Below are positions 4,290 to 27,554 of a DNA stretch of 64,000 nucleotides, piece by piece. The notes under the pieces are model-generated. The model did no database searches and was not told where the DNA came from. It saw only the letters and a program-made list of their open reading frames with translations. Within the stretch, counting starts at the first letter, position 1, and every line of letters begins with the position of its first letter. The translations under genes were made by a program, and so were the position numbers. Source of the DNA: an uncultured Candidatus Saccharimonadales bacterium (GTDB lineage Bacteria > Patescibacteriota > Saccharimonadia > UBA4664); contig CAYXSN010000002.1 of the NCBI GenBank assembly GCA_964467655.1, forward strand, positions 27,327-91,326, in the 5' to 3' direction.

Positions 4290-4628
4290 TTACTTCCCAA
4301 ATGCGCTCGTTGCTAAGTCGGTCACAATGTTACTGATGACAAAAGCCGCAATGACAATTGCCAGCCCAACACCCGACCAAATGACGGTCTGCCTGGACTT
4401 CTCCAGCCGTTCCGGATTGCCCGAGCTCGTGATGTAGCCCAAGCCACCAACCACAAAGAAACCGGTAGCTACCAGTCCGGCGAGGCCGGCCACCACCTTG
4501 ATAATACTGCGGATAAATGTTTCAACTTGGGTTATATTTCCGTCCGACGCAAATACCGGATGAGCGAGAACGAGGGGAAGACCCAAACTTAGTACTGCCA
4601 TGAATTTTATTGCTTTGGATCTTTGCAC
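4290..4628 (-). CDS. VirB2/TrbC-like pilin (conjugative/T4SS-type pilin subunit)
   Basis: Signal peptide (MAVLSLGLPLVLAHPVFA), two hydrophobic helices separated by SSGNPERLEKSR, about 110 aa. Topology is typical of TrbC/VirB2-family pilins common in CPR genomes. Confidence 0.5.
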   Translation of the reverse strand: MQRSKAIKFMAVLSLGLPLVLAHPVFASDGNITQVETFIRSIIKVVAGLAGLVATGFFVVGGLGYITSSGNPERLEKSRQTVIWSGVGLAIVIAAFVISNIVTDLATSAFGK

Positions 4629-5214: not shown

Positions 5215-5529
5215 GTGACGATTCAAGAAGCCCAACAACAAGCCCTAGCCATCGCCGAAAAATATCGACACCAAAACGCCGCCCAGGGCAAAGAAACATG
5301 GGACGCATCGGCATATATGGCAGGCTTCGTCGGTGACGTCGGCGATCTATCTAAACTGATCATGGCAAGAGCCGGCTATCGCGACATTGAAAATCACGAC
5401 GCCAAAATTGCCCATGAACTGAGCGATTGCCTCTGGTCGGTACTGGTGCTGGCTCATGAACTTGGGGTTGACCTTGAATCTGAGTTTGCGAACACCATGC
5501 GCGAGCTCGACAAACACCTGGCAGAATAA
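5215..5529 (+). CDS. MazG-like nucleoside triphosphate pyrophosphohydrolase domain protein (GTG start)
   Basis: All-alpha, about 100 aa. Motif pattern EL.D.LW.VLVLAHELGVDLE matches the MazG/NTP-PPase family. GGAGA RBS upstream of GTG. Confidence 0.55.
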   Translation: MTIQEAQQQALAIAEKYRHQNAAQGKETWDASAYMAGFVGDVGDLSKLIMARAGYRDIENHDAKIAHELSDCLWSVLVLAHELGVDLESEFANTMRELDKHLAE

Positions 5530-5555
5530 CCAAAGTCCGGTACAATCACTAGAGC

Positions 5556-6158
5556 ATGCAAACCGAAATCGAAGCCAAATTTATCAATATCAAGCCATCG
5601 GCCATCCGCGCTCGACTAGAGGCGCTTGGCGCTACCCTCGTGCAACCTGAGCGGTTGATGCGCCGCCGTACCTTTGACTTCGCGGACACCCGCCTCAACC
5701 AAACCGGCAGTTGGGCCCGGGTTCGTGATGAAGGCGACAAGATCACCATGAGCTTCAAGCAAAACAAGGACGACACATTACATGGTACCGTTGAAATTAA
5801 CCTAACCGTGGACGACTTTGATACCGCCGCTGACTTCCTGAAGGCGCTCGGTCTAGTACAAAAATCATACCAAGAAACCAAGCGCGAAGCCTGGCTCTTG
5901 GACGGCACCGAAATCACTATCGATACCTGGCCGTGGATTGCTCCCTTCGTCGAAGTTGAAGGCCATTCAGAACAGGCCGTCCGGGAAACCGCAAGCAAAC
6001 TCGGCTTTGACTGGGCCAAAGCTATGCATGGAAGTGTAACCCCCGTCTACCAGCTTGACTACAATGTGACGGCGGCCGAAGTGAACGGTTGGGAAACCAT
6101 AACCTTTGAGCCCGTTCCGGCCTGGCTCGAACAGCGCCGGAAGCCACGCCATGACTAG
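5556..6158 (+). CDS. CYTH-domain protein (triphosphate tunnel metalloenzyme / class IV adenylyl cyclase-like)
   Basis: N-terminal ExExK signature (EIEAKF); about 200 aa with alternating beta-strand pattern and C-terminal acidic residues. Confidence 0.6.
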   Translation: MQTEIEAKFINIKPSAIRARLEALGATLVQPERLMRRRTFDFADTRLNQTGSWARVRDEGDKITMSFKQNKDDTLHGTVEINLTVDDFDTAADFLKALGLVQKSYQETKREAWLLDGTEITIDTWPWIAPFVEVEGHSEQAVRETASKLGFDWAKAMHGSVTPVYQLDYNVTAAEVNGWETITFEPVPAWLEQRRKPRHD

Positions 6159-6606
6159 GCGGATATCGGTTCGTGGCATTGTCCTGCACAAGGGCAAATT
6201 ACTTTGTGTGCGCCTCGGGCCCAGTCCGTCAGAAGGTCGAGTAGGCCCGTCAGATTATTGGTGTCTGCCCGGCGGTGGTCTTGAAGAAGGTGAATCCCTG
6301 CACACTGGACTTGAGCGTGAGATGATTGAGGAAACAGGCGTAAAACCGGCCATTGGCCAGCTCATGTACGTTCAGCAGTTCTCGATTGGCGACAAAGAAT
6401 ATCTGGATTTCTTCTTCCACGTCGCGAACCACCAAGATTATGTGAATATAGATTTGTCCAATACAACGCATGGCGAGATCGAGCTGGCCGAAATCTCATT
6501 TATCGACCCTGCCAGTAGTCATGTTATGCCAGAGTTCCTCACTCAGGAAGATTTACGGCAATTCGTCGAGAGTATCCAACCAACACGTGTGATCTCAAGA
6601 CTTTAA
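6151..6606 (+). CDS. NUDIX hydrolase
   Basis: Perfect Nudix box GGLEEGESLHTGLEREMIEETGV. Start overlaps the upstream stop by 8 nt. Confidence 0.8.
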   Translation: MTRRISVRGIVLHKGKLLCVRLGPSPSEGRVGPSDYWCLPGGGLEEGESLHTGLEREMIEETGVKPAIGQLMYVQQFSIGDKEYLDFFFHVANHQDYVNIDLSNTTHGEIELAEISFIDPASSHVMPEFLTQEDLRQFVESIQPTRVISRL

Positions 6607-6649
6607 TTGTGGCCCGCTCATTGGTGCCAAGGCTTAGATAGGATTTACC

Positions 6650-7168
6650 ATGACAAATCACGAGAACCTTATGTCTGCACCTATTGAAACGGAAATGAAT
6701 TTAATCATCACTGATAAATCTGGCCTACTTGAGTTCTTAAAAACGCAAGCTGACGTTAAGAAATCGCAAATACAATTTGATTATTATGGTAAGCCGGGAG
6801 ATAAATCGTTTTACGTCCGCATCGAGCAACGAACCGATGCTGCCGGCAACGTCACGAGGTTCGTAACTGCCAAGGGTTCCTTCGCCAACAATGACGGTAT
6901 CAACCAAAGAAAAGAGGCAACTCTAGCCATTCCTGATAATGCAGTATCGGATTATAAAGACTTTCTTGAAGTTGTTCAGCTCCAGTCTCGTGATACCAAG
7001 ACTAAAACCCGGCACGCTTTTAAGATCGACGGCCTCGATGTGACTGTCGACGAATGGGATACCCCCGAGCTAGGTGATCGTCTTGAGATTGAAGGCACCG
7101 ATATGGCGAAGATCAAGGATTTTGCCTCACGCGTATCGGCCTATTGCCAGTCCGAGCCCTCAGAATAA
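6650..7168 (+). CDS. CYTH-like domain protein (divergent)
   Basis: N-terminal IETEMNL (ExE) and C-terminal LEIEGTD motifs resemble a CYTH fold. Low certainty. Confidence 0.35.
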   Translation: MTNHENLMSAPIETEMNLIITDKSGLLEFLKTQADVKKSQIQFDYYGKPGDKSFYVRIEQRTDAAGNVTRFVTAKGSFANNDGINQRKEATLAIPDNAVSDYKDFLEVVQLQSRDTKTKTRHAFKIDGLDVTVDEWDTPELGDRLEIEGTDMAKIKDFASRVSAYCQSEPSE

Positions 7169-7185
7169 ACAAGCGGGTATGTCCT

Positions 7186-7228
7186 AAAAAAGCTCAGCCC
7201 AGATGACCATAGCCTCTTTGAGCTTTTT
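7186..7228 (+). terminator. putative rho-independent terminator after the CYTH-like gene
   Basis: aaaaagctca ... tgagcttttt inverted repeat with a T-run. The loop is large, so this is moderate. Confidence 0.35.
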
Positions 7229-7538
7229 CTAGTATTCGTCATATGTAGGAAGTTTCTGGGCAAGCTCAATATAGCAAGACTTGACGGTCGTCGCGGTCAG
7301 TTCAATCTTATCAACCCAGCTGGGAGTACAACTCAGCCGACGAGCTTGCACACAGCAAGATCAGCAAGAGCAAGTTCGCCCTGCGGGTAGACTTCGACCC
7401 CGAGCTACACCCACTTGGTATTGGCGATGGGGGAATCAACGCGTCCACTCTGGTGCCAAACGGGGCTGCGGCCCTGAGTTTGGCTGCCAATGCGGCAAGA
7501 CGGTTGATGGCGGTTGCGGCTACACCTTGAATAGGGTT

Positions 7539-7721
7539 TCAAACGCCGTAGGCGTTACTCATCACATTGGCAAGAGCGGCCGTTCCCGCTAGGATTAGTC
7601 CGCCAGCTACAAATAGCCAGAAGACCCAGTTACCGTGGTCCTTGGAACTAGAGAATTTCCACGCTGACACCGCTACAGCGACTGCGGCAGAAATTAGTAG
7701 GACGATGTAGGCGCTAACCAT
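7539..7721 (-). CDS. small two-TM membrane protein
   Basis: 60 aa, two hydrophobic helices. Confidence 0.3.
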   Translation of the reverse strand: MVSAYIVLLISAAVAVAVSAWKFSSSKDHGNWVFWLFVAGGLILAGTAALANVMSNAYGV

Positions 7722-7784
7722 GAGCTTGCTCTTGTTATTGAAATGCTATTCTGCTCCACATGTTAGAGGCCTAGTTACTCTATG

Positions 7785-8225
7785 TCAATTAGCCAACGAC
7801 CTCTTTAGGATAAGCTGTTGCAGTTCTAGCTGACCGAGGATGTTGGGGTGGAAACTCTGCTGCGGCGGGAGGCTAACGGCGTTGAAGAATGGCCGCTTAG
7901 TACATAGTTCGTGGCCTTTGAAGGCGTCGTACATGGGGACATAGGTAAACCCTGCCGCCTCCGCTTTGCTCTTGATCTGCAAATCCATGTTGAGTGTCCG
8001 GCTGCAAAGACGCCCCAGGAGCTCCACCATAAGAAACGCGACAATGTACGCCTCCGAGCCAAACCCGTAGTTGACGAAGCCTGGTATGATAGACCTATGA
8101 CTATTACTGTTCTCCAATGGAATACCTGGTACCAAGAAAACGTCCATCACATCGCCGGCTTTTTGGCTGAGCATCCGGCTGACATCCTGACGCTCCAAGA
8201 GCTCACCATCGGTGACCGGCTTCAA
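7785..8225 (-). pseudogene. possible truncated SGNH/GDSL-hydrolase C-terminal fragment
   Basis: C-terminal ...FTYVPMYDAFKGHELCT...SFHPN... resembles block V (DxxHP) of SGNH hydrolases. The 5-prime part overlaps the EEP gene on the other strand, so the full ORF is unlikely. Confidence 0.25.
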
Positions 8226-8840
8226 GACGTGCCCAACTCGCCGGATTTCTTGGCAGCATCATTGGGATACCATGCCCATTATAAAGATATGCCCTACGAG
8301 ACTGCCGACGGCACGACTGTTACGCTGGCGAGTACCATCTTGAGCAAGCACCCAATCGCCACAACCAGGGCCGAATGGTTCAGCCAGCCGGCGCCCAGCG
8401 ATGCCATTGCCGACCACTATCGGGCCTACGTTGAAGCCACCATCGATTTGCCCGATGGCAGCCAGATCACTGTTGGAACGGCCGCCGCTAGTTATACTGA
8501 CAGCTTTACTAACTCTGTCGCCAAGGACGCCGAGACCGAAAGGCTCATCAATACCATGGGCGCTCACCAGCAACGGTATATTTTTGGCGGCGATCTGGGT
8601 GCCACCCCACCTAGCCACACGTACGAAGATTTCTGTCAGATGCTCGAACCACGCGGACCCAACCTCGTACAGCCCACCTGGACGACCAAGCCGTTTGGCC
8701 GTAACCAATACGATATTCACGAGCTAGCCTGGCGGCTTGATTACATATTTAGCACCCCTGACGTCAAACAAATTGACGCTGCCGTTCTGGAAACACCGTA
8801 TTCGAGCCATTTGCCGATCGCGGCAACGTTTGAAGTGTAA
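8097..8840 (+). CDS. endonuclease/exonuclease/phosphatase (EEP) family protein
   Basis: TVLQWNTWY...ILTLQE start typical of EEP; conserved C-terminal DYIF and SDHLPI-like motifs. Confidence 0.7.
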   Translation: MTITVLQWNTWYQENVHHIAGFLAEHPADILTLQELTIGDRLQDVPNSPDFLAASLGYHAHYKDMPYETADGTTVTLASTILSKHPIATTRAEWFSQPAPSDAIADHYRAYVEATIDLPDGSQITVGTAAASYTDSFTNSVAKDAETERLINTMGAHQQRYIFGGDLGATPPSHTYEDFCQMLEPRGPNLVQPTWTTKPFGRNQYDIHELAWRLDYIFSTPDVKQIDAAVLETPYSSHLPIAATFEV

Positions 8841-9011
8841 AAAAATAAGGTCATAATAATTTACTAAATAGTAAAAAATATGCTAATATACTGTATATTT
8901 GTGAGTGACTGGTCGGTCATGGTCTGAACTTACGCGATCGTTGAAAACCAAATATTGTACAAACAATTTGTTCAATACCAGATAGCAGAACCTAGCGGAA
9001 GGAGATGCATC

Positions 9012-11309
9012 ATGGCGGCACATCGCCAGGCAACGCTTCTATTTGAGGAGCAAAGCTCCAGTTCACCGGCTTGCGTCGGAGGCAAGGGAGCCGGTCTGGC
9101 AGCAATGGTAGCTCTCGGGCTACCAGTGCCACCAGGCTTCACCATCCACACGGGCGTTTGCCGCGCCTACCTGCAACACAGTCGGCTGCCACGGCGGCTC
9201 GCTTGGCAGGTGACGCGCAGTCTGGCAAAGCTTGAGCAGGAAACTGGCCGCGAGTTTGGCGATAGTGTCGACCCACTGCTGGTGTCGGTTCGTTCTGGCG
9301 CAGCCGTGTCGATGCCCGGCATGATGGATACAGTCCTCAACCTCGGAATCAATCCCGAAGTTGTGTCTGCCCTCAGCCGTAGGTATGGCGAATGGTTTGC
9401 GTACGATACTTTCAGACGATTCCTCGCCATGTACGGCGAAGTCGTTATGGGTGTCGATGCCGGACTACTCAAGCTGCCCCATGAATTGGCCAAGCTCGAC
9501 GCCGGCGGTAACGCCGTGAGCGCCGATGCCTTGGAGATTGTCTGCGTCGAGATGCTTGAGCTCATCGAAATGGAAACCGGTTCGCCTGTTCCCGTCGATC
9601 CTCGTGAGCAGCTCGACAATGCGATTACTGCTGTGTTCAGGTCTTGGAACAGTGAGCGGGCCATTGCCTATCGGCAGGCCCACGGACTCAACCATGCCGC
9701 CGGCACTGCAGTGAATGTGCAGGCCATGGTGTATGGCAACCGCGATGAAGCTTCGGCTTCCGGCGTGGTCTTTAGCTCAAACCCCACCACCGGCCAGCCA
9801 GGTCTCTTCGGAGAATTTCTGGTACAGGCGCAGGGTGAGGATGTCGTAGCTGGAGCCAGTAAGCCTTTGCCAATTAGTCACTTGGCAGACTGGAATCAGC
9901 AGATCAGCACCGAGCTAGCTGCTCACGTCAGCCACTTGGCGACCTTGCATGGCGAAGTTGTCGACGTTGAGTTTACCGTCGAGTCTGGGCGTCTCTACAT
10001 CCTGCAGGTCAGGGCCGCCAAGCAAACCTTGGTGGCTCGGGTAACCCAAGCTGTCCACCGCGTGTGGTCGGGCGAAATTGCCCGCGAAGACGCCGTAAGC
10101 CTTTTTACTGCTGACGAGTTCATGCAACTCAAAGTCGCTTGCGTTGATAAGGATACGTTGAAGGACGTCCTCGTCGTGCTTGGCAACGGGATAGCTGTGT
10201 CTCCTGGCGCTGCTACAGGCGTTGTGGTCGACTCATCAGCAGATGCATGTGAACTGGCAGCCACGGGGCAATCAGTGGTGCTCGTGCGTTGTGAAACGAG
10301 CCCCGATGATTTACCAGGCATGTTGGTAGCCAGCGCCATCGTCACTTTTGCCGGCGGCACTACCTGCCATGCAGCAGTGGTGGCCAGAGAAATCGGGCGC
10401 CCATGTGTGGTAAATGCTCAGCTTCATCGGAGACTGCGTCCGGGCATGGCAGTAACTGTCGACGGCACCTCGGGATCTATTTACCGGGGCCGTTTACCAC
10501 TCACCAATGCCCGGCCGACCAAAGAAGTGGCCATCCTCATGAAGTGGAAGCAAGGCACGGCCTACCAGCCGCGACTCAACTTCGACTTGATGAAAGAGCA
10601 CCATTCAGTGAACCGCATGGCGACAGACTTCTACTCGGTCGACGCCATGTGGCAATGTAGCCGCGGAACCGCACTGGAAGACCTCTGCTATCAGAAGCGT
10701 CAAAAGGTCCACATTGATGCCGCTGAATTTTTGGCCACGTATGTGGCTGTAGCGGTAGCTGGTGAACTACGCCATTACGCACGATCGAACGACAATGTTG
10801 ACCTGGAAGCGCATCCGCACATCAGTCATCTCCGGCAGAAGTTCGGGTTGATTGCCGTGTCTGAGTGCCTTGGTGATGAAAGGGCACACAAGCGGCAATA
10901 CGCGCAAGAGCAAATTGCTAGCGCTTTAAGAACCATGGACGTAGCAAGTCAGATAGAGTTCTTTGAAACCGCGGTTTTGGCCTTCGAATCCAGGTTATTC
11001 GGGGGATCGTACGGTGGCGAGATGTGGGCTCAAATTGCTCGCGCTGGAGCCATGTTCCTGCGGGGCGAAATGCCGCCAACAGTGGCGGCTGACCACATCT
11101 TCGACCTGCGGCACAACTGCGGCCGCATCTTCGATAAGCATCCTATGGCGAGCGATTTGACGCGTGAGGGCGATTTGGGCCATCAGCTTGATTACAAGCG
11201 ATCAGTTCCTGACATCAAAGAGCTGTGGTCAAAACTCAATTTCTATGGTCGTGCAAGCGACCAAATCACTGAACTGTGGCACCATGGTCAGAGTTCTGAT
11301 CTATGGTAA
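9012..11309 (+). CDS. PEP-utilising enzyme family protein: PPDK-type N-terminal ATP-binding domain + phospho-His swivel domain + unassigned about 280-aa C-terminal domain
   Basis: N-terminus VGGKGAGLAAM...PVPPGF (PEP synthase / pyruvate phosphate dikinase nucleotide-binding domain). Central GGTTCHAAVVAREIGRPCVV mobile His domain. GGAAGGAG RBS before the ATG at 9012. Confidence 0.75.
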   Translation: MAAHRQATLLFEEQSSSSPACVGGKGAGLAAMVALGLPVPPGFTIHTGVCRAYLQHSRLPRRLAWQVTRSLAKLEQETGREFGDSVDPLLVSVRSGAAVSMPGMMDTVLNLGINPEVVSALSRRYGEWFAYDTFRRFLAMYGEVVMGVDAGLLKLPHELAKLDAGGNAVSADALEIVCVEMLELIEMETGSPVPVDPREQLDNAITAVFRSWNSERAIAYRQAHGLNHAAGTAVNVQAMVYGNRDEASASGVVFSSNPTTGQPGLFGEFLVQAQGEDVVAGASKPLPISHLADWNQQISTELAAHVSHLATLHGEVVDVEFTVESGRLYILQVRAAKQTLVARVTQAVHRVWSGEIAREDAVSLFTADEFMQLKVACVDKDTLKDVLVVLGNGIAVSPGAATGVVVDSSADACELAATGQSVVLVRCETSPDDLPGMLVASAIVTFAGGTTCHAAVVAREIGRPCVVNAQLHRRLRPGMAVTVDGTSGSIYRGRLPLTNARPTKEVAILMKWKQGTAYQPRLNFDLMKEHHSVNRMATDFYSVDAMWQCSRGTALEDLCYQKRQKVHIDAAEFLATYVAVAVAGELRHYARSNDNVDLEAHPHISHLRQKFGLIAVSECLGDERAHKRQYAQEQIASALRTMDVASQIEFFETAVLAFESRLFGGSYGGEMWAQIARAGAMFLRGEMPPTVAADHIFDLRHNCGRIFDKHPMASDLTREGDLGHQLDYKRSVPDIKELWSKLNFYGRASDQITELWHHGQSSDLW

Positions 11310-11337
11310 AACCCATCAAGTCTGCTTGGAGGCAGCC

Positions 11338-11964
11338 ATGACGAACAGGCGACCGCGCAGCGGAAACAACACAAGAAGGCGGAGCGGACCCTATAGTACG
11401 GGTCAGGTTATGCCTCGTAGTGCGATTGCGGATCAGCTCCTCGCCCTTCACGGCTGGCGCGACCACGAACCGCATCTGGGAGATAAGCCCGTTAGTATTG
11501 GCGGTCGCCATATTTGGGCCGCCGGAACCACTTATGGGGCACAGATGACCGGAGGAAGGTTGCCGCACTTTGACGCGTATGTCGCACTTGACAACGTAAG
11601 TGTAGTAGGTCATAATGAGACAGTTCTGGCATTTCCGCTGACTGATTTCGGCGGTGTGCCCGAGGGTTGGCTTGACTTACTCATGGCGGATATCGTTCCA
11701 GATATGAGGAACGGCTATAGGCTGTGCGTGTTCTGCGTTGGCGGCCATGGTCGGACCGGCACGGTACTGGCGTCGCTGATCGCCATTCTGGAATCGGAGT
11801 TCGACACTCCTGACCCCATTCAGGCAATCCGCGAGCGCTACTGTTATCGGGCAGTCGAAACCCTGGAGCAGGCTGAGGGCATCTTCGCCCTCCGTGGCCA
11901 GCAGCTGCCTGAGCGCTGGAGGAAAAGCCTCATGCCTCGACAGTCAATGCTTCCTAGGTACTAA
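11338..11964 (+). CDS. protein-tyrosine / dual-specificity phosphatase-like protein
   Basis: CX5R P-loop FCVGGHGRTG with an upstream acidic loop. GGAGG RBS 5 nt before the ATG. Confidence 0.6.
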   Translation: MTNRRPRSGNNTRRRSGPYSTGQVMPRSAIADQLLALHGWRDHEPHLGDKPVSIGGRHIWAAGTTYGAQMTGGRLPHFDAYVALDNVSVVGHNETVLAFPLTDFGGVPEGWLDLLMADIVPDMRNGYRLCVFCVGGHGRTGTVLASLIAILESEFDTPDPIQAIRERYCYRAVETLEQAEGIFALRGQQLPERWRKSLMPRQSMLPRY

Positions 11965-12089
11965 GTAGATCAGTTCGACGAGAACTGACACCCAACGGCG
12001 CCCACGCGCCGAACGTTTCACCCCCGACCATGCGTGGGCAACTTGGTCACGACCAATCATGTACGTTCACAAATTGTGAGGAGTGTCGC

Positions 12090-12710
12090 ATGACCGCTCA
12101 GACATTCGAGAATCCGTGGTTGATGGCTGGTACCGAAGGTACCGACAAGTACTACGTAGTCATCGCCACCGGCACCAAGCGCGTTGGCATTCGGGAGTAC
12201 GCTCCCGGCTACTTCCGCGTTCGCGTGGAGGTAGGCGACAAGTACAAGGGCCTGAGCGAGCGCCTCACGCGCGACACCGGCTGGAAGCAGCCGGGTGACA
12301 GCGGTGAGCAGCGCTTCTCGAAGACGACCTGCGCCGACGGCCTCGCCGCTGTGCTGGCCGAGGTCTTCGGGGCACTCAAGATCCAGCTCAATCCCAGGCT
12401 GGTGCCGGCCCTGGCCGCCGCGGCCCACGCCAAGGCGTTTGGAGTGCCGGAGGCGGAGGTTTCCGAGCCTCAGCCTCTGGTCGCCGAACCGGCTGCACCT
12501 GCCGCCGACGAGGCTCCCACCGAGGAGTCCGAGGTCCAGGAGCCGGCCGCAGCCACGGAGGCCACGCAGCTCGACGAGCTCGTCGAGCGCATGCTCGAAG
12601 GTATGGCGGCTGTTGCCACCGAAGCAACCGCCACGGCCGCCATGGTGCAGGACGTCTACCGGGCTGCCGTTGCTGCCGCCAAGGAGCGGCTGGACGCCTA
12701 CCGTTTCTGA
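12090..12710 (+). CDS. hypothetical protein (high-GC, Ala/Glu/Pro-rich C-terminus)
   Basis: GAGGAG RBS. GC is clearly higher than the flanks, and long ORFs on both strands are a typical high-GC artefact. No recognisable domain. Confidence 0.4.
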   Translation: MTAQTFENPWLMAGTEGTDKYYVVIATGTKRVGIREYAPGYFRVRVEVGDKYKGLSERLTRDTGWKQPGDSGEQRFSKTTCADGLAAVLAEVFGALKIQLNPRLVPALAAAAHAKAFGVPEAEVSEPQPLVAEPAAPAADEAPTEESEVQEPAAATEATQLDELVERMLEGMAAVATEATATAAMVQDVYRAAVAAAKERLDAYRF

Positions 12711-13307
12711 CAACACCAACCCATCGGATCTAAGGAGGTAGTCATATGACTGCCATGATCAATGGTCGGGCGCCGCCGGTTATCCCGGCCGGACGGGTCG
12801 GTGTACACTAGCCGAAGCAGCCAGCTTGGCTACGTGGTACATCACCTGAAAGGTCTCGGGACCGGCACTTGCAGTCTGCAGGACCGGTTCACGGCCGCGG
12901 CGGAGAGTGGTCGATAGATACCCATGTGAGCAATGGGACTCCGAATGGTGCTCGCCCTACAGCGAGACGGTATCCTGATCCGTGATCAGGCGTTACGGAG
13001 CAACTGTCAAGCGCCGTAATGATAGGGTTTGGATGCTCAATTCAAACCCCAATGCACGGGACTGGTCCTGTGTGAACACAAGTGGCGCCTTGCCAGCGCC
13101 CGCGGTGACAGGCAACGTTGCCATAGTTGCTTACGGAAGGCATCTGGCAATGCAAGTGGCAATTGGCCAGCAGACATGGATTGTTTGCTAGGCGGTGGCG
13201 CGTGTAATACTGGACTAGCCGGGACGCCGGACCCAGTAGAAGCGCCTGCCGCGACAGCGGTCAATACGACATTCCGACTATACTAATAGAGGGCTTCGGC
13301 TCTCGCG

Positions 13308-13363
13308 CCCCTCCGATGGAGGGGCCGGGGGTGCTGGTTATGCCAGCACCCCCATTTCTTTAT
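13308..13363. terminator. tandem GC-rich hairpins with flanking T-tract (bidirectional terminator candidate)
   Basis: cccctccgatggagggg followed by gggggtgctggttatgccagcaccccc and then atttctttattc. Lies between the photolyase 3-prime end and the upstream plus-strand genes. Confidence 0.45.
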
Positions 13364-13372
13364 TCACAGTCT

Positions 13373-17308: not shown

Positions 17309-18921
<1,613 letters not shown>

Positions 18922-19250
18922 TCAATTCCTTCCAGATTGCAAACACAAACATTACCCATCACGCCGCTCCAAGTCGAGCTTTTTGCGCCTTTGGGCCTCA
19001 AACATGTCGAATAGCATGGCTGCTAGTTTATCGAGCGCCTGCTGTTCAGCCTCACTTACTTGTTTGGCGGCTTTACCGCTCAATTAGGATCTCCCAGCTA
19101 AGTGCTGTTCAATCCCTTCCAGAATGTTCCTATTATCTCAAGCTGTGCTTACTCGATCCAGCCTTGTATTTGTTTGCTGGCCTGGTGAAAAGATGTCGTT
19201 ATGCTACCACCTTGCCATCCTCCCCAACCTAAGCTAAAACACAACACGCT

Positions 19251-19673
19251 ATGCCTGAGGTTTACGAGAACACCAACAACATCGCCGCTTCGATTTGCTT
19301 TCGTCTACGGCCTATTTTGGGCCACGGCAGCGTGGTAATTGTGTGCGACGCGCCAGATAGGTTGATACCCGAAGTAAGGCGTTTGTGGGGTCGCCTGACG
19401 CGCCTGGAGCAGGATCAGCGCCGCCGTACCGACGACGTGTTGATGATCACAAAGCTCACCGATGAAATCGTAGCAATGCAGCATCTTTGGTTCGGGACTG
19501 ACGAGCTGGATTGCCCAGTGCGCTTCATGACCGTCGAGCAGTTTCGGGAGCAGCCATACCTAGCCCGCACTTTGTTTGTTGCGTGTGATCTGGATAGGGA
19601 AGCATTGGATGATCTAGTTGGGTACATGCCGCCGAAGTCACTCGTCGTAGCCTTTGGTGCGCGACGTGGCTAG
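19251..19673 (+). CDS. hypothetical protein (element-encoded)
   Basis: 140 aa, no motif recognised. Confidence 0.35.
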   Translation: MPEVYENTNNIAASICFRLRPILGHGSVVIVCDAPDRLIPEVRRLWGRLTRLEQDQRRRTDDVLMITKLTDEIVAMQHLWFGTDELDCPVRFMTVEQFREQPYLARTLFVACDLDREALDDLVGYMPPKSLVVAFGARRG

Positions 19674-20101
19674 TGAAGCCGCCCCATCAAAAGATCGGAT
19701 AAAGCTGGCTCGGAAACTAGCTGCCGTATATGTGGCGGCTGTAGCATTACAATCGGCTCTTGAAGAAGTTGAAGGCCAAATGCCGGATGTTTCAGTCGAA
19801 CTTAAGGGCAGTACATTTAGCGTTCGGGCTGGGAATATTCGTTATGGCAGCAAGTTTGATGGGATATAACACATGGAAATAAGACTCACCAAGAAAGAAC
19901 TCGACCTCCTCCGGCTCGGTCTATCTTGCATCTCAATCGTCTCCACGAACTGGACGGCGGCCGAGAAACTCTCCGCGAAATTGCTCAAAGCCAAACAATC
20001 AGGTGTCACTAATAAGCGACGCGCATCCGAATCTGAGGCGAAACTTTGATTTGGCCCTATATGGGGCTAGAATGTCATTATTTACTGGAAGGATACTCAT
20101 A

Positions 20102-20632
20102 ATGCCTGAAACTACACCGGAACCTGTTAAGAAGAAAAGCTGGTTTGCCCGTCATAAAGTACTCACAGTTCTCGGAGCGCTCTTCATCATCGGAATTATT
20201 GGCAATATGGGCAATAAAGATGCCACTAAAACAGCCTCAAATGCGACTCCCGCACCCAGCGCTGCTGTAGCTGGAGCAGCTACTCAGTCGGCCCAAACCC
20301 CAACCGCAACCCCTACACCCAAAGTCCCCGCCGAATATGTATCCGCTCTGGCTCAAGCTGAGACTTACTCAGGCACGATGCACCTATCTAAGGCTGGCAT
20401 TTACGATCAACTCACCTCGGAATATGGCGGCAAGTTCACCGCTCCTGCAGCCCAATACGCAATCGACACCGTGAAGGCTGATTGGAAGGCAAACGCGCTG
20501 GCTCAGGCGAAGACTTACCAGAATACTATGCACTTATCGCCAGCCGCTGTTCGCGATCAACTGGTATCCGATGCCGGTGGTAAATTCTTGCCAGCCGAGG
20601 CGGACTACGCAGTCGCTCACCTTAACGATTAG
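20102..20632 (+). CDS. Ltp-family host-cell-surface lipoprotein (superinfection exclusion-like), two Ltp repeats
   Basis: N-terminal TM/signal anchor. Two repeats: A..AQAETYSGTMHLSKAGIYDQLTSEYGGKFTAPAAQYAIDTV and ALAQAKTYQNTMHLSPAAVRDQLVSDAGGKFLPAEADYAVAHL. GGAAGGA RBS. Confidence 0.6.
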   Translation: MPETTPEPVKKKSWFARHKVLTVLGALFIIGIIGNMGNKDATKTASNATPAPSAAVAGAATQSAQTPTATPTPKVPAEYVSALAQAETYSGTMHLSKAGIYDQLTSEYGGKFTAPAAQYAIDTVKADWKANALAQAKTYQNTMHLSPAAVRDQLVSDAGGKFLPAEADYAVAHLND

Positions 20633-20643
20633 AGGAGGTCGCT

Positions 20644-20919
20644 ATGAATTGGATACTCTCACTCCTGATCGGAATAGGTGTCGGCTGGTTCGTTGCCTGG
20701 CAATACTACACTCGCAAAACCGCAGAGCTGCTCGGTGATGGGTTCAAGGAAATGACCGAGGATTTCTTCAGCGCTCATCAGGAATGGGCTGAGCAAGAGG
20801 CTGACACGGTTTTACTCCGCCAGAGTCGGCCTGACTTGTCATTTCGTCCACATGAGCTACACGCTCAGGCGTTCGTTAATGCAGCCGCCAAAGCTCGGCA
20901 TCGGCGCGAGAACGGCTAG
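20644..20919 (+). CDS. small membrane protein
   Basis: N-terminal TM (ILSLLIGIGVGWFVAWQYY); 91 aa. Confidence 0.35.
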   Translation: MNWILSLLIGIGVGWFVAWQYYTRKTAELLGDGFKEMTEDFFSAHQEWAEQEADTVLLRQSRPDLSFRPHELHAQAFVNAAAKARHRRENG

Positions 20920-20959
20920 AGTTACTGGACATTAGCTGTATACCGCTTAAGATAGGGGC

Positions 20960-21331
20960 ATGAAGAAACCCAACTCATGGCTTGCGCTCTGCCGCCGCCT
21001 CGGAACACCGCCAAATGGCTTCCAACTTGCCTGGAGCCGTCATGTCGTGTTTAACGATGACCTGATCTGGTTTGCGAATTGTCTCTGGGGGCTATTTGAT
21101 ATCAATTTGTCCGAGGGCAAGAACGAAATGGTGCTGCGCGATATGGTCGCCAGCCACGGCAAAGTTCGAACTGCTCAGTTTTTTGTTTGGTGGCGCGATA
21201 ATCTAGGTGATCGCACAAGTCTTGAGCAAATGCAGGGTTCCGGCTTTATCGAGCATTTCGACGGCCGAGACGCATTAACGCTTGATTCCGATGAAGAACT
21301 GGCCAACATTCTGGCCTCGCACGGAATGTAG
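20960..21331 (+). CDS. hypothetical protein
   Basis: 123 aa; no motif. Confidence 0.35.
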   Translation: MKKPNSWLALCRRLGTPPNGFQLAWSRHVVFNDDLIWFANCLWGLFDINLSEGKNEMVLRDMVASHGKVRTAQFFVWWRDNLGDRTSLEQMQGSGFIEHFDGRDALTLDSDEELANILASHGM

Positions 21332-21359
21332 GTTTATGGCTATTAGCCAACAGATATAA

Positions 21360-21640
21360 ACGCGTTGATTTGAACCTAATTTGAGCGTAAGCTTGATATA
21401 AGACTTCCGAAGACCTATAACATCTCGGAGTCAGATCATTACTACTAAATATCTGACATCGCAGCGGGTACGTACCGCTTTATAAATCGGCTTGGAGTAA
21501 CAGACACAAGTAAAAACTGGCAGGTGTCGCTGACTTGAGAGAACTAATGTTCGAAGCTATAATGGAATAGTTATAGGTCTTCGGACAAAAGTCGTCTCAA
21601 TGAGGCGGCTTTTTCGTTTAGCCGCCTCGGAAGGAAATCC
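21360..21640. promoter_or_regulatory. AT-rich intergenic control region with multiple dyad symmetries
   Basis: 14-bp perfect inverted repeat CCGAAGACCTATAA (21407) / TTATAGGTCTTCGG (21575). Internal hairpin gtcagat...atctgac. Palindrome GGTACGTACC. Confidence 0.3.
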
Positions 21641-21645
21641 GAGCA

Positions 21646-22560
21646 ATGTCCGACACGACCAACAGCCTGGCGAGTTTCACGCCAGTCACTATCACTGCCG
21701 AAACAATCGGCATTCTGCGCCAGCAAAAACACTTCGCCGACCTGTTGGCGCTCTATATGGCCTACGCAGAAGTCTCCGTATGGCAGAAGACTACCACCGT
21801 AAGATCTACAACTGGATTCATGGCGGATCGTATGGGCTGGGAGGAGAAGAAGCTCCGCAGCCGGAAGGCTGAGCTGCGTGAGTTAGGCCTGATTAAAGAC
21901 GTCACTCGCTATGACGATAAGCGTCGCGCGACTGGCTGGTACGTCCAAGTGAACTATGTCGTTAATCCCGAGAATATCCACCCCTCCGATTTTGGTGTGG
22001 GTGGAAATAGCCACAGGGTGGAATCTCCTACCCCAAGTGCTGTTAATACAAGTTTAAGTACTGTTGATTCAAAGCTAAGTACTGAACCTTCAGATAAATC
22101 TGAAGTATTACCTAAAGTAACCTCGCCAATCGCTGCGCGATCTGTCGAGGACACTCATTGGAATGATGGTGACGATATCTTTGAGCTTCGCCCTAATGAC
22201 GTCGCATATGCGCAGCGCACTCTTGAACGGATTTTCGGATTCGGGATCATCGAGGCGGATTCGGATATCGCTTTGCTCCGCACCTTAGTGGCCAGACATG
22301 GGCGCAAGGCAGTATTGGCAGGGTTCCGTGCCGTCAGGAAAGATGGAGCCGAATTTGACCTGTCCGCGTTCGTAGGCGAATGCGATAGAGATTGTGGGCA
22401 AGGCGGTAATGGTGAGGGGTGTTTCTTCACTGACACGCAGGGGAGCAGCAATGGTGACGAAGCATGGGCGATGGAAGCGGCTGCGGAGATATTGGCCGAG
22501 CTTGATGCCAATAAGGGGGCGCGGCACGTAAGTGCAGGCGTACAGGCTAATGTGTATTGA
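21646..22560 (+). CDS. hypothetical protein, possible replication/DNA-binding function (winged-helix-like N-terminus)
   Basis: 304 aa; conserved-looking N-terminal 120 aa, then a low-complexity Ser/Thr linker and an acidic C-terminus. Function inferred only from position after the control region. Confidence 0.3.
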   Translation: MSDTTNSLASFTPVTITAETIGILRQQKHFADLLALYMAYAEVSVWQKTTTVRSTTGFMADRMGWEEKKLRSRKAELRELGLIKDVTRYDDKRRATGWYVQVNYVVNPENIHPSDFGVGGNSHRVESPTPSAVNTSLSTVDSKLSTEPSDKSEVLPKVTSPIAARSVEDTHWNDGDDIFELRPNDVAYAQRTLERIFGFGIIEADSDIALLRTLVARHGRKAVLAGFRAVRKDGAEFDLSAFVGECDRDCGQGGNGEGCFFTDTQGSSNGDEAWAMEAAAEILAELDANKGARHVSAGVQANVY

Positions 22561-22639
22561 GGCGACGTTCCATCCGAGTAATCTTCTAATTTTATATCTG
22601 GTGCTACAATCCGCTTAAGATTGTTTGTGAGGTTAAACA

Positions 22640-23119
22640 ATGGCGAGTCGAAACTCGACTAATACACGTGATCTAGCGTCATTCTCCGTACTTAATGGCC
22701 CGGATAGATTAGCGGTAATGCTAAAAGCCGAAGGCAAAAGCGCCGAGCAAATCGCTACGGGCATATATTCCGAATTTGGCACCACACGTTCGAAACGGAC
22801 AGTTCAAGAATGGTTTATACCTGGCGGGCGGCTCGAACAGGCCTATCTCGAGTGGTCAGAAGTTTTGGCCAGCGAGAGTGTGCGTGATGCTCAAATTCTG
22901 GCGCGCCGTGCTGCTCGGGGTGCGGTCGGTAAGCTGATCTCATTGTCCGAGCGAGCTGATGACGCAATAGCTTTACGCGCTGCTACGGCTCTCGCAGCTA
23001 AGTACCTCGCCCCCGGCAAGTCAGGTGGCGGCTTCGAGGAAGAAGAATTGCCTCCGCAGCTTGAAGACGATGTGCTGATTTCGATTGATTTTGAGCTTGG
23101 AAAGATGCGGGGTGAGTAG
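22640..23119 (+). CDS. putative HTH DNA-binding protein (small-terminase-like or regulator)
   Basis: N-terminal helix-turn-helix-like KSAEQIATGIYSEF...RTVQEW; 159 aa. Confidence 0.3.
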   Translation: MASRNSTNTRDLASFSVLNGPDRLAVMLKAEGKSAEQIATGIYSEFGTTRSKRTVQEWFIPGGRLEQAYLEWSEVLASESVRDAQILARRAARGAVGKLISLSERADDAIALRAATALAAKYLAPGKSGGGFEEEELPPQLEDDVLISIDFELGKMRGE

Positions 23120-23263
23120 TGACCACAGAGGAACAGCTGCGACGATGCTTACCGATGCACGAGATTCTCTGCCCAATTTTTCGCGGCAAGGAGTGTGATT
23201 GTGGCCGGGAGCAATTACGGGCGAACATTTTGAAGCTGATTAAGGACGTGAGAAAAGAAGAAC

Positions 23264-23536
23264 GTGGACGATATTATTCATGACGAAGATGAAAAGGGTT
23301 TAGATTTAGGCCCAGAGTTCGAGGTTGAGGTTAGTGACGAACCGAAAACCAAAGATCTGACCTGGAGCGAAATGGGTACGGCGATGTTCAACCCAAATAC
23401 CCGCCAGAAGAAGGCTCCGCCCGAAGATTTCAGCATGCCAAAGCCGGGGGTATTCGGCTCCCCATTCAGGCCAAGCATCGGGCCAAATGGTGAGCTGATC
23501 CCAGCTATCGTCCCCTTAGAAGGGAAGAAGCGATGA
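23264..23536 (+). CDS. hypothetical protein
   Basis: 90 aa, acidic N-terminus. Confidence 0.3.
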   Translation: MDDIIHDEDEKGLDLGPEFEVEVSDEPKTKDLTWSEMGTAMFNPNTRQKKAPPEDFSMPKPGVFGSPFRPSIGPNGELIPAIVPLEGKKR

Positions 23537-23904
23537 AGGCCATTCCGCAGTTCACGCCGCGCAAAGCTGACGACTATACACCTCTCTGGGGCGAGTGCCG
23601 TATTGTAGGTTTTTGCTTGCCGGATTGCGGATTATGCGCCTCAATAGCGGAGAGCTATTCGTTAAGCCAGAAAGCGGTTCAACAGACGGAGCCTCGGAAG
23701 TTTTCGCAGTTGCGTCCTGATCAGCAATTAACCATTCGTATGTTTCATGACGGCTGCGCATACGATGAGATATCTGCAGCGCTTGCCGAAATCGGGGTCG
23801 CCAGATCCCGGCGCGGAATCCAACTTATGATGAGCAATCCATTCGTCAAACATGCATTAGCCGAGTACAAAGCCACAAATGAGACCCCCGGAGTTACTAA
23901 ATAG
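23533..23904 (+). CDS. hypothetical protein with C-terminal sigma-region-4/LuxR-like HTH
   Basis: LTIRMFHDGCAYDEISAALAEIGVARSRRGIQ resembles region-4-type HTH. Start overlaps the upstream stop (ATGA). Confidence 0.3.
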   Translation: MKAIPQFTPRKADDYTPLWGECRIVGFCLPDCGLCASIAESYSLSQKAVQQTEPRKFSQLRPDQQLTIRMFHDGCAYDEISAALAEIGVARSRRGIQLMMSNPFVKHALAEYKATNETPGVTK

Positions 23905-24096
23905 TTACTCTGTAACAATATACTTGATACGTCAAGCATTACCAGATATAGTGGACTCAGATTAAGGGGGAGACTCTCATGACACAGCCAGGACTAGAAC
24001 TTCTGATTCGGAAGCTATCGAATGATGTTGAGCAATTGCAGCTCGGATTAAAAATGCTTAACGAGCATCTAGCTGAGTTGATGGTGGAGGCGGATC

Positions 24097-24738
24097 GTGG
24101 TTAGCCCTACCGTTTTCGAACCAAGCGATGACTTTCAGGCAAAGCGTCAAAACGACCGCGACCGCGCCCAAGACGACCGCCTACGCGAAGAGTCAGGCAA
24201 AGTCCAGTTGCCGCGTTATAACGGGCTGCCATTCGATGCCACCGAGCTACCGACCGAAGTTAATGGCATGCGTGTCGAGGTTACCGACAAACCTGAGCTG
24301 ACTGTGAAGGCGTTTTATCGTTCGCAACTTCGTGATCCTGAATTTTACCGAGCCAATAAGCCAGCGATTCTGGAGGCTCAGCGCCACAATCTGATCATCG
24401 ATGATGTCACTGACCCAAAGGTGGCAGAAGCGCTCAAAGCTCAGCGTAAAGAAGCCGAGAACGCGCTCAGCGCCAGCAACGAAGCCATCATGCTGCCAAT
24501 CGCCTTGCGCGACGCTCGGGCCGAAGCCGACAAGCTGTATGTAGCGTACAAGGCAGCCGAAGCCGAGAACCAACGTTATCTGTCCACGCATGGAATCATG
24601 GGTGACGATGAGGTGCGCCGGGCAACTGCTCGCGTCGTCTTCAAAGCCAAAGAAGATTGGGAGGCTGCATCGGCTCGCATCCAGGAGCTGGTTCAGAAGA
24701 ACAACGAAATGTGTCAGCGTCGGGCGCAAGGTAAATAG
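24097..24738 (+). CDS. hypothetical coiled-coil protein
   Basis: 213 aa, charged heptad-rich C-terminal half. Confidence 0.35.
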   Translation: MVSPTVFEPSDDFQAKRQNDRDRAQDDRLREESGKVQLPRYNGLPFDATELPTEVNGMRVEVTDKPELTVKAFYRSQLRDPEFYRANKPAILEAQRHNLIIDDVTDPKVAEALKAQRKEAENALSASNEAIMLPIALRDARAEADKLYVAYKAAEAENQRYLSTHGIMGDDEVRRATARVVFKAKEDWEAASARIQELVQKNNEMCQRRAQGK

Positions 24739-24747
24739 GAGTCCATC

Positions 24748-24945
24748 ATGCCCGCTACGAATAATCAAACAATAATCTTGCAAATTAACCTTGACGCTGC
24801 AAATAGCGGGAAGGCTCTGCTAAGCCGAGACACTGAAGGCTTTACTCGTATAGTTGAACTCATCAAGGAAGGTTACGAGATTGATTACATTATCAGCGAT
24901 GGCTTCAGCTCAATAGCCGTATCTGTAATTCGCGAGTCGAACTAG
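24748..24945 (+). CDS. small hypothetical protein
   Basis: 65 aa. Confidence 0.25.
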   Translation: MPATNNQTIILQINLDAANSGKALLSRDTEGFTRIVELIKEGYEIDYIISDGFSSIAVSVIRESN

Positions 24946-25099
24946 CCGCTCCCCGGCGGCTTCGGACGGCTGTAACCCCCTTATGGCTGTCCGAAGCTGC
25001 TTAGGCAGCAACCCCCTCCTTACACGCATGGGTTTACGGTCCCCATGCGTTCTATCCCGGCCGGAAGCGGTCGGGGCGCAATTATTAGAGAAATATCAA

Positions 25100-25900
25100 A
25101 TGCCAGCAAACAACCCACCAGCAGATTTTCCAACTTCGCTACATGAGCGCACAAATGTTGTCGCCTTTAACGGTACGCCACTAGGCGATTCAACCCCAAC
25201 ACAGACCGATATCATGGGTAAAGTTGAAGAAGAGATTTACCAAATCCAGCGCAAGATTGGGATCGGTGAATCGTCTGCGGAATCTGCTCTTGCTGGCGAA
25301 ATTTGGACTGCTGATGGTCTTGGCGGCTCTAGCTGGCAAGCTCCTGGCGCTCCCGGCGACATTGATGCCGGTATCTTGGAAGCTCTAACCGAGAAAGTCG
25401 GTGGCGGCACACCAACAACGCCTAACGCTGGCGAGTTCCTGGTTGGCACCGACACCGGCGAGTCGGCCTGGCGCGCAGCAACATCGGCCGATGTCGGCCT
25501 TGATCAGGTGGACAATACCGCCGACGCCGATAAGCCCATTAGTGACGCCACGCAAACCGCCCTCGACGGCAAAGAGGATGTCGCAACCCCCGTAACCCTG
25601 ACCGATGCCGCCACAATCGCCGTAAACGCCGCACTCGGCCGTGAATTCCGAGTGACGCTCACAGCCTCCCGCACGATGGGCAATCCATCCAATCTTGTTG
25701 ACGGCCAGCGCCTCTTATTCCGCATTGAGCAAGGCGGTTCAGGCTCATACACGGTCACATGGTCGAGCAAATACCGCTTCAGCACCGATGTCCCATCGCC
25801 GACACTTTCAACGACGGTCGGGGCCGCTGACTTTGTATTCTTCAACTACAACGCCGGTGACGACAAGCTCGACTGCTTGGGCTGGGCGCGGGGCTACTAA
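25100..25900 (+). CDS. putative tail fibre / receptor-binding protein
   Basis: GLDQVDNTADADKPISDATQTALDGK motif, which I recall from prophage tail-fibre proteins of Gram-positive hosts (from memory, not checked). Immediately precedes the Gly-rich fibre gene. True start probably the internal Met (ORF opens at 24983). Confidence 0.4.
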   Translation: MPANNPPADFPTSLHERTNVVAFNGTPLGDSTPTQTDIMGKVEEEIYQIQRKIGIGESSAESALAGEIWTADGLGGSSWQAPGAPGDIDAGILEALTEKVGGGTPTTPNAGEFLVGTDTGESAWRAATSADVGLDQVDNTADADKPISDATQTALDGKEDVATPVTLTDAATIAVNAALGREFRVTLTASRTMGNPSNLVDGQRLLFRIEQGGSGSYTVTWSSKYRFSTDVPSPTLSTTVGAADFVFFNYNAGDDKLDCLGWARGY

Positions 25901-27479: not shown

Positions 27480-27554
27480 GTTCAACCTGTTCATGTTGCG
27501 GGGGCTGGCATTCGCTGGCCCTCGCAACGACACGGATTTATTATTAGAAGTATT

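Follow-up and report, generated by a model that had tools for sequence, protein, structure and literature searches.

A PPDK-like dikinase with a helical C-terminal domain, linked to a Cys-phosphatase in uncultured bacteria and phages: a candidate phosphorylation/dephosphorylation module

In a stretch of 64,000 nucleotides from an uncultured Candidatus Saccharimonadales bacterium (contig CAYXSN010000002.1, positions 27,327 to 91,326; hereafter the window), three consecutive open reading frames (ORFs), ORF1 to ORF3, encode a dikinase-like protein, a phosphatase, and a protein with a conserved Arg-rich domain (Table 1). A first-pass annotation, made from the letters alone, had read them as an operon; this reading is upheld, and the coordinates and plus strand originally given are confirmed. 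Its phosphotransfer engine is of a known type and its phosphatase of a known class, but they are combined with two undescribed domains. We propose, with somewhat less than even confidence, that ORF1–3 make up one self-contained phosphorylation/dephosphorylation module.

ORF1 has two Pfam matches, PF01326 PPDK_N (3.1e-43) and PF00391 PEP-utilizers (3.5e-21, aa 421-488), and no further family, which agrees with the ATP-grasp domain and His swivel read earlier from the letters. Solved structures of pyruvate, phosphate dikinase (PPDK) align with aa 10-514 only (E 1e-103 to 1e-108). Across this region ORF1 is ~45% identical to real PPDKs and retains the ATP-grasp motifs and the catalytic His. The motif around His453, GGTTCHAAVVAREIG (also GGTTCHAAVVAR), aligns to GGMTSHAAVVARGMG of T. 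brucei PPDK, and the His is retained in at least 90% of 114 family members. To judge from these residues, the N-terminal half of ORF1 is an intact machine for making phospho-histidine (His~P) from ATP. ORF1 shares with PPDK (EC 2.7.9.1; C. symbiosum 1KBL, T. brucei 2X0S) the ATP-grasp domain, the linker, and the phospho-His swivel, in the same order. However, PPDK has a TIM barrel of ~340 aa for phosphoenolpyruvate (PEP)/pyruvate (PF02896), whereas ORF1 has instead a 250-aa all-alpha domain. No Pfam match to PF02896 was found in ORF1, and the barrel is lacking, as had been proposed.

Table 1. Features of the ORF1–3 cassette and its borders, in positions of the window
Feature	Position	Strand	Remarks
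ORF1	9012..11309	+	765 aa, PPDK-like dikinase with novel C-terminal domain
ATP-grasp domain, linker, and phospho-His swivel, ORF1 aa 1-514	9012..10553	+	Pfam, NCBIfam, PPDK structures
Catalytic His453 codon	10368..10370	+	inside motif GGTTCHAAVVAREIG, nt 10353-10397, aa 448-462
New all-alpha "CT" domain, ORF1 aa 515-765	10554..11306	+	replaces PEP/pyruvate barrel
ORF2	11338..11964	+	208 aa, minimal Cys-based protein tyrosine phosphatase (PTP)/dual-specificity phosphatase (DSP)
P-loop FCVGGHGRTG (Cys133, Arg139), ORF2 aa 132-141	11731..11760	+	CX5R motif
ORF3 N-terminal part, aa 1-95	12090..12374	+	conserved Arg-rich "O3N" domain
ORF3 tail, aa 96-206	12375..12710	+	Ala/Glu/Pro-rich linker, then C-terminal helices; G+C fraction (GC) 0.70
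AT-rich intergenic stretch 5′ of ORF1	8840..8955	no strand	GC 0.29; possible promoter region
Terminator-like hairpin, 12 bp (9 GC), then T-run	13327..13353	+	probable end of the transcription unit

Among the NCBIfam models, the full-length PPDK equivalog TIGR01828 gives 519.5 bits for a cut-off of 843.45 and is covered from position 5 to 524 of 865. The model of truncated PPDK-like proteins, NF004531, is passed (469.2 bits, cut-off 456) over ORF1 aa 5-511 only, leaving the extra 250-aa domain uncovered. Because NF004531 passes its cut-off, an automatic pipeline would name ORF1 "pyruvate, phosphate dikinase". The truncated "PPDK" of this model (NF004531/PRK05878, 534 positions), which we take to be typified by mycobacterial ppdK, is without barrel like ORF1. 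Compared with such proteins, ORF1 adds the conserved domain of 250 residues and fixed PTP and ORF3 partners, and the NCBIfam name would mis-describe it.

The rifampin phosphotransferase (Rph) models NF041857 and NF000283 give 57.3 and 31.7 bits for cut-offs of 999 and 1700, and they align only the swivel segment of ORF1 (aa 392-490), to the C-terminus of the model; TIGR01417, for Enzyme I of the phosphotransferase system (PTS), gives 17 bits for a cut-off of 341. Rph likewise uses an ATP-grasp domain and a swivel His to phosphorylate the hydroxyl of a non-pyruvate substrate, but it has a C-terminal swivel, an inserted substrate domain, and no partner phosphatase, and the ORF1 module differs in each respect. 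In PTS Enzyme I/HPr, a PEP-utilizer swivel His also passes phosphate to a partner on a helical domain, but Enzyme I is charged from PEP through a TIM barrel, which ORF1 lacks, and the ORF3 domain has no invariant His. ORF1 thus lacks at least one defining feature of each of these classes and is neither PPDK nor PEP synthase, and neither rifampin phosphotransferase nor PTS Enzyme I. An analogy with the rifampicin enzyme had been drawn in the first-pass annotation, and inactivation of an antibiotic or other xenobiotic would fit the common superfamily, the transfer from ATP-grasp domain and swivel His to a small-molecule hydroxyl, and the weak Rph matches, which come through shared domains. The analogy does not hold up, and such a role is hardly likely: apart from the low NF041857 score and the different domain order, a co-conserved phosphatase would reverse the inactivation, lytic phages have the module beside DNA polymerase, and none of the inspected loci has a resistance-gene context.

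The C-terminal 251 aa of ORF1, described at first as unassigned and helical, indeed belong to no family. The AlphaFold2 model built from 114 homologues (mean predicted local distance difference test score, pLDDT, 94.3; predicted template modelling score, pTM, 0.92) has twelve helices and zero strands. A Foldseek search of the PDB gave no match at E ≤ 1e-3, with template modelling (TM) scores below 0.3, and the hidden Markov model (HMM) of the family finds no PDB sequence and has no Pfam match. The sole library match is phrog_20946 (function not assigned, 2e-11), and a search of BFVD returned four unnamed phage proteins. Since the fold is all-helical and has no structural relative, the domain is not a degenerate TIM barrel, the outcome that would have made ORF1 an ordinary PEP synthase. 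Conserved and confidently modelled, it is a candidate new enzyme fold. An exhaustive HMMER scan found it in at least 430 representative clusters, most of them 700–800-aa proteins with the same PPDK-like front, and the bacterial copies are almost always fused C-terminal to the swivel domain, where PPDK has its second active site. Residues Y577, E585, W672, D694, H701, N702, and K709 and a GG pair are invariant, and the motifs that hold them are AVxGExRH, GGxxWAxIA, and FVDHVFDLRHNGGxxFxKH. Such a pattern points to catalysis or ligand binding at this site more than to a scaffolding role. A di-iron (ExxH/DxxH) reading of the domain was rejected, as H588 is not conserved and no ferritin-like fold was matched.

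The CX5R phosphatase seen in ORF2 by the first-pass annotation has a marginal Pfam match (PF22784 PTP-SAK, 27.6 bits for a cut-off of 27), the nearest models being PTP-SAK and Tc-R-P (PF22785). The profile of the ORF2 family matches DSP 25xa, SsoPTP, and human DUSP23 (25xa, 2i6i, 4erc) with E values of 1e-12 to 5e-12, and its Asp loop, P-loop, and Q-loop align with those of solved PTPs, the D103 loop standing against IPDGGVP of SsoPTP. Across 31 homologues D103 (in DFGGVP), C133, R139, E174, and Q178 are invariant; both the catalytic Cys and the catalytic Arg, on which the phosphatase reading had been made to depend, are among them. The invariant D/CX5R/Q set and the profile matches argue for a hydrolytic phosphatase, and ORF2 is predicted to be a catalytically complete SsoPTP/DUSP23-like Cys-phosphatase. 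With SsoPTP and DUSP23 (VHZ) it has in common the ~150-aa core and the D...CX5R...Q set. Unlike them, the ORF2 family has an N-terminal signature H-x-G-x-x-V-x-V-G and a C-terminal signature DPIxAVRxRHCxxAVET, and its genes always adjoin dikinase or helical-domain genes.

ORF3 had been called a GC-rich unknown protein. It is GC-rich (GC 0.673) and has no Pfam family match, only a weak one in its tail to DUF7945 (E 0.084), but its N-terminal 95 aa are a conserved, system-specific domain. Homologues were collected from ORFs neighbouring dikinase loci, as a word-indexed homologue search with the full-length protein or with the N-terminal domain returned ORF3 itself only. The resulting alignment of 35 sequences from dikinase loci, the sole setting in which the domain was found, has invariant R43, R45, E47, W65, R75, and S77, near-invariant G14, T15, G17, Y21, and R35, and the motifs GTEGT, RVRVE(P), WKQPGD, and RFS. 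It has no invariant His and no relative in Pfam or the PDB. BLASTP of ORF3 against the neighbours in two loci, L001 and L003 (L numbers designate loci), gives 1e-19 and 8e-18. A single-sequence AlphaFold2 model of the domain reaches a pLDDT of 50.8, too low for a fold search. The sequence behind the domain is lineage-specific. In the window it is an Ala/Glu/Pro-rich linker with helices. In Melainabacteria a repeat of ~34 aa, xERxxLIAxVRxLKVPGANxASRWSLxTLRAKLA, in which G, W, L, and K are invariant, occurs there once or twice (homologues in L011–L054, e.g., L026:10167-10772 and L012:6794-7435). In Saccharibacteria it is short and basic, with KRGRP in two cases. A reading of these tails as DNA-binding HeH/SAP domains or AT-hooks found no support in profile searches of Pfam and the PDB.

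Full-length homologues of ORF1 (~83, 39-49% identity) rank above ordinary PPDKs in the match list. With every species represented by one genome, a scan yielded 50 loci, the majority from Obscuribacterales/Melainabacteria, others from Saccharibacteria and further Patescibacteria (Nomura-, Magasanik-, Moranii-, and Adlerbacteria), and a few from metagenome-assembled genomes of Gammaproteobacteria and Chloroflexota. Their ORFs were searched with profiles seeded from ORF2 and from the first 95 residues of ORF3. In the usual layout the phosphatase homologue lies directly 3′ of the dikinase and a gene with the ORF3 domain adjoins. Of the 45 distinct loci whose sequence extends 2 kb or more downstream, 22-23 have both partners, 9-10 have the ORF3 domain without the phosphatase, 6 have the phosphatase without the ORF3 domain, and 7 have neither; hence 38 of 45 independent loci have one or both beside the dikinase. 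Identities with the downstream genes of L001 and L003 are 46% and 43% for ORF2, and 46% and 44% for the N-terminal domain of ORF3. The pairing of kinase and phosphatase noted in the first-pass annotation is thus conserved in ~50 loci, and it is sealed by gene fusions: phosphatase and ORF3 domain are fused in both orders (L016, L027), and dikinase, helical domain, and phosphatase form a single protein of 935 aa (P0229). From locus to locus the trio is surrounded by different genes, as expected of a portable unit; no further conserved neighbour was found across the lineages surveyed. Some genomes have expanded the dikinase. In Obscuribacterales L027:2461-8910 there are two tandem paralogues with a PTP gene between them and an ORF3-domain+PTP fusion in front, and several genomes have two or three separate dikinase loci (e.g., L011, L029, and L043 in Obscuribacter MP5IB2). 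Such expansion is typical of regulatory or conflict systems. ORF1–3 have no match at E ≤ 1 among the defence models of PADLOC-DB 2.0.

The triple fusion and the tight operon coupling would also fit a phosphorelay from His~P of ORF1 to Cys133 of ORF2, giving a Cys~P like that of PTS EIIB, and from there to an acceptor held by the helical domain or ORF3. Cys~P carriers with PTP-like folds do exist in the PTS. We regard this as very improbable, because invariant Asp103 and Gln178 are hallmarks of hydrolytic PTPs, whose Q-loop disfavours transfer to acceptors other than water.

Another role for ORF3 would be that of the substrate. In such a protein-phosphorylation switch, the helical domain would dock ORF3, much like HPr is bound by PTS Enzyme I on its helical subdomain; S77, or else T15 or Y21, would accept the phosphate, and ORF2 would reset the system. 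The exclusive association of the ORF3 domain with these dikinases, its invariant Ser and conserved Thr and Tyr, and the 9-10 loci with dikinase and ORF3 domain and no PTP are what one would expect of a substrate. Operons of kinase, phosphatase, and substrate are common, and the nearest solved relatives of ORF2, SsoPTP and DUSP23, are protein phosphatases. Yet the domain is missing from 13 of 45 bacterial loci and from phages that have the dikinase, the helical domain, and the PTP; it lacks the invariant His of an HPr-like carrier; and its fusions with the phosphatase exist in either order, as is typical of targeting domains and not of substrates. The switch is therefore unlikely. Because phages lack ORF3 and the domain is fused to the phosphatase in either order, we rank an adaptor or reader role of ORF3 above that of substrate.

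A sub-clade of Melainabacteria (L009, L028, L036, L039, L047, L049, L050) has an alpha/beta-hydrolase gene upstream of the dikinase with operon-like spacing, and in L009, L036, L039, and L047 a gene of the PIG-L N-acetylglucosamine (GlcNAc)-deacetylase family lies between the two (hydrolase/PIG-L spans L009:4612-6392 and L036:1825-4473; the PIG-L-cluster member of L050 is cut by the contig end). These loci often lack the ORF3 domain or the PTP. They bring to mind glycans. Glucan, water dikinase and the glucan phosphatases SEX4, LSF2, and laforin of plants and animals form a comparable pair, in which phosphomonoesters are written by a His~P dikinase and erased by a DSP Cys-phosphatase, sometimes fused to a targeting domain. 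Its order differs from that of ORF1, a carbohydrate-binding module (CBM) and the His domain preceding the nucleotide domain. If ORF1 were a dikinase of glycans or glyco-conjugates with a CBM-like ORF3 domain, the PTP+ORF3-domain fusions would correspond to the DSP+CBM architecture of laforin and SEX4, and the invariant Trp and near-invariant Tyr of ORF3 would find a place. However, no CBM family was detected in ORF1–3 or in ten ORF3-type homologues at E ≤ 1, nor any other carbohydrate-related family in ORF1–3; four invariant or near-invariant Arg are atypical of CBMs; the phage versions lie among replication and packaging genes; and the PIG-L synteny is limited to related genomes. A glycan substrate is thus quite unlikely. 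Without claiming membership, ORF1–3 may nevertheless work in a way analogous to the glucan-water-dikinase/SEX4-laforin pair.

The three core parts also occur as separate genes near DNA polymerase in siphophages of Vibrio (Ares1, vB_VneS_J26), Stenotrophomonas (DLP3, DLP5), and Rhodobacter (RcZahn). In Ares1, adjacent genes encode a 691-aa "pyruvate phosphate dikinase" (38% identity to ORF1 aa 22-505; no domains besides PPDK_N and PEP-utilizers), a phosphatase of the PTP-SAK type, a 337-aa protein homologous to the helical domain over its full length, and a conserved 285-aa unknown protein, followed by DNA polymerase I and a portal gene. DLP5 and RcZahn have the same type of block with two PTP paralogues, and the helical-domain HMM matches their 338-357-aa "hypothetical" proteins (1e-26 to 1e-54). 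The block is set between terminase and DNA polymerase/portal, and the extra conserved gene encodes 255-285 aa. The phage and bacterial systems thus share a homologous PPDK-like half, a PTP-SAK, and a helical-domain protein in one gene block, but the PPDK half and the helical domain are fused in bacteria and separate in phages; the C-terminus of the phage PPDK-like protein is a different region of ~180 aa; and no ORF3-type domain was found in Ares1, DLP5, or RcZahn. Two genes of DLP5 (L092, 4128-4598 and 5653-6441) encode PTP-domain proteins (profile E 1e-17 and 3e-20). The RefSeq label "thymidylate synthase" is a mis-annotation of at least one of them, from which the label of phrog_17568 probably derives. 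The searchable literature holds no functional study of the module, only descriptive phage-genome papers; the work that defines PTP-SAK falls outside that coverage, and an earlier computational description is possible. PTP-SAK is said to have been defined by Burroughs and Aravind in 2023.

The phage gene has been published as a PPDK auxiliary gene of carbon metabolism (PMC12038007; PMC7326821), in one paper with a modelled 168-residue "TIM barrel" and docked PEP (PMC12038007). The absence of PF02896 argues against this reading. If ORF1 itself were simply a PPDK or PEP synthase whose barrel had degenerated, with unrelated genes beside it, this would account for the published name (PMC12038007) and for the NF004531 score (469 vs. 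456). But PF02896 is absent, TIGR01828 falls short (519 vs. 843) and ends at model position 524, the C-terminus is all-alpha with zero strands, and the neighbours are conserved and fused, which leaves this explanation with a next to negligible probability.

Viral contigs from IMG/VR, inspected over 16 kb each (±8 kb), have the helical domain at 34 loci and in settings more varied than those of bacteria. There are tandem arrays of five to six paralogues (L062:885-10404, with genes for a 447-aa DSP phosphatase and a tail sheath behind it; L071:1944-9809, alone), copies inside proteins of 3,300-3,800 aa (L068:24-11558, L087:717-10634), and pairs of helical domain and phosphatase between terminase and DNA polymerase genes. 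In L075, L079, and L089 helical domain and PTP are paired with no PPDK-like gene within 8 kb. The helical domain might then be an enzyme or interaction module in its own right, with the PTP as its true partner and the PPDK half only regulating or energising it; the arrays, with a DSP or alone, and the giant phage proteins would follow naturally. Against this, the bacterial domain is nearly always fused C-terminal to the swivel, at the position of the second active site of PPDK, and a PPDK-like gene may lie elsewhere than in the 16 kb inspected per contig. We consider an independent module improbable.

At the locus itself, the longest frame of ORF1 opens at TTG 8955, and ATG 9012 stands 8 nt behind GGAAGGAG; the 765-aa product was also called independently by gene callers on identical contigs. 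The ATG codons of ORF2 (11338) and ORF3 (12090) are preceded by GGAGG and GAGGAG. The AT-rich region upstream of ORF1 is as AT-rich as first described, but as a promoter it has a single sigma-70-like match (8830-8857, 9/12 matches), no better than in shuffled sequence. Nor does composition mark the cassette as horizontally acquired cargo, as the elevated GC had suggested: ORF1 (0.567) and ORF2 (0.577) are at the level of the housekeeping genes of the window (leucyl-tRNA synthetase, LeuRS, 0.567; SMC 0.563; ABC transporter 0.566), and ORF3 alone is GC-rich (third codon positions, GC3, 0.81). Downstream, 660 nt without a long ORF (12711-13372) contain a strong AAGGAGG box followed by an ORF of 21 codons (ATG 12746); this stretch has no Rfam match and no similarity at other dikinase loci. 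The hairpin at its end is the sole terminator-like site 3′ of the cassette. It probably ends the ORF1–3 transcription unit and is common to the convergent photolyase gene.

The window is bacterial chromosome, with genes for LeuRS, a Mur ligase, and SMC, and the cassette lies outside a phage-like integrated element that starts right of tRNA-Ala at 17309. A large serine recombinase gene (17320-18921, minus strand) overlaps the 3′ end of this tRNA-Ala(GGC) (17309-17384), and a tape-measure protein gene lies at 29017-31173; 17309-31173 is probably an integrated prophage, right of photolyase and MMPL, the neighbours of the cassette. Directly upstream of the cassette, on the same strand, is a run of phosphate/nucleotide-hydrolase-type genes (5215-8840, plus strand): CYTH (5556-6158), NUDIX (6106-6606), a 172-aa unknown (6650-7168), and endonuclease/exonuclease/phosphatase (7911-8840). 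A NUDIX gene also lies 5′ of the dikinase in L001, and the run is otherwise not conserved between loci. A gene of the TrbC/type IV secretion system pilin family lies ~4.5 kb upstream (~4290-4628, minus strand; annotation transferred from the identical contig L004, 2201-2539, window offset +2089). The LeuRS of the window (46482-49748, plus strand, 1088 aa) has an unusual architecture, with ASCH (aa 247-349) and NUDIX (aa 488-612, 1.8e-13) inserted around the editing domain.

The domain identities, the catalytic residues, the conservation of the trio, the fusions, and the split phage version suggest how a self-contained phosphorylation/dephosphorylation module might operate. PPDK, PEP synthase, glucan-water dikinase, rifampin phosphotransferase, and phenylphosphate synthase all hand His~P to an acceptor on a separate domain. 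ORF1 is most likely an "X, phosphate (or water) dikinase" and not a pyruvate-phosphate dikinase. Its ATP-grasp domain, of PPDK type, would pyrophosphorylate the swivelling His453 from ATP, and the gamma-phosphate would be discarded to Pi or water, giving AMP and PPi or Pi. The remaining His~P, the beta-phosphate of ATP, would be carried by His453 to the helical domain, which would hold the acceptor in place of the PEP/pyruvate barrel. There the E585/D694/H701/N702/K709 cluster, on a Gly-rich H-N-G-G loop, may bind Mg2+ and phosphate and activate the acceptor hydroxyl. ORF2 would hydrolyse the phosphomonoester made by ORF1, as an eraser or a proofreader. The Arg/Trp/Tyr-rich N-terminal domain of ORF3 would be a targeting or phospho-ligand-reading subunit alongside dikinase and phosphatase, and its lineage-specific tail would set the localisation. 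Three points tell against this scheme. A kinase and its eraser in one operon would imply a futile cycle if nothing regulated them, and no candidate regulator is seen; seven of the 45 bacterial loci have neither partner nearby; and, as the chief observation that the scheme does not explain, viral helical domains occur in arrays and giant proteins without a nearby PPDK-like gene, so the domain may have an activity of its own and not only serve as the His~P acceptor site.

As for the acceptor, phages keep the dikinase, the helical domain, and the phosphatase but not ORF3, and hence one would expect it to be a ubiquitous component of cells or phages. The module is common to phages of Proteobacteria and to uncultured Saccharibacteria and Melainabacteria, and it lies beside phage DNA polymerase; the target is therefore probably universal. 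The context of phage DNA polymerase, terminase, and helicase and the basic tails of ORF3 point weakly to nucleotides or nucleic-acid-associated targets, and the PIG-L/hydrolase operons point, also weakly, to a GlcNAc-type substrate. A nucleotide or nucleic-acid-associated target is our leading guess, a tentative one. More speculatively, and with rather little probability, the module may be a hitherto unrecognised means of writing and erasing a phosphate mark on DNA, RNA, or nucleotides, in which a phospho-His dikinase has an acceptor domain of new fold and a Cys-phosphatase of its own. One lineage of 80-100-kb siphophages, which encode it together with their DNA polymerase, would share it with Patescibacteria and Melainabacteria. 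If so, the module could explain a DNA or nucleotide modification in these siphophages, and the helical domain would found an enzyme family of its own, which in phages has also grown into arrays of paralogues and giant proteins.

In conclusion, the helical domain of 250 aa and the Arg-rich domain of 95 aa belong to a conserved and portable system and match nothing in Pfam, the PDB, or PADLOC. Their description corrects a spreading annotation, as the truncated-PPDK model and several phage papers speak of PPDK and carbon metabolism for proteins none of which has a pyruvate/PEP site. Once identified, the target might lead to a phospho-modification not described before, or to new chemistry in host takeover or defence.

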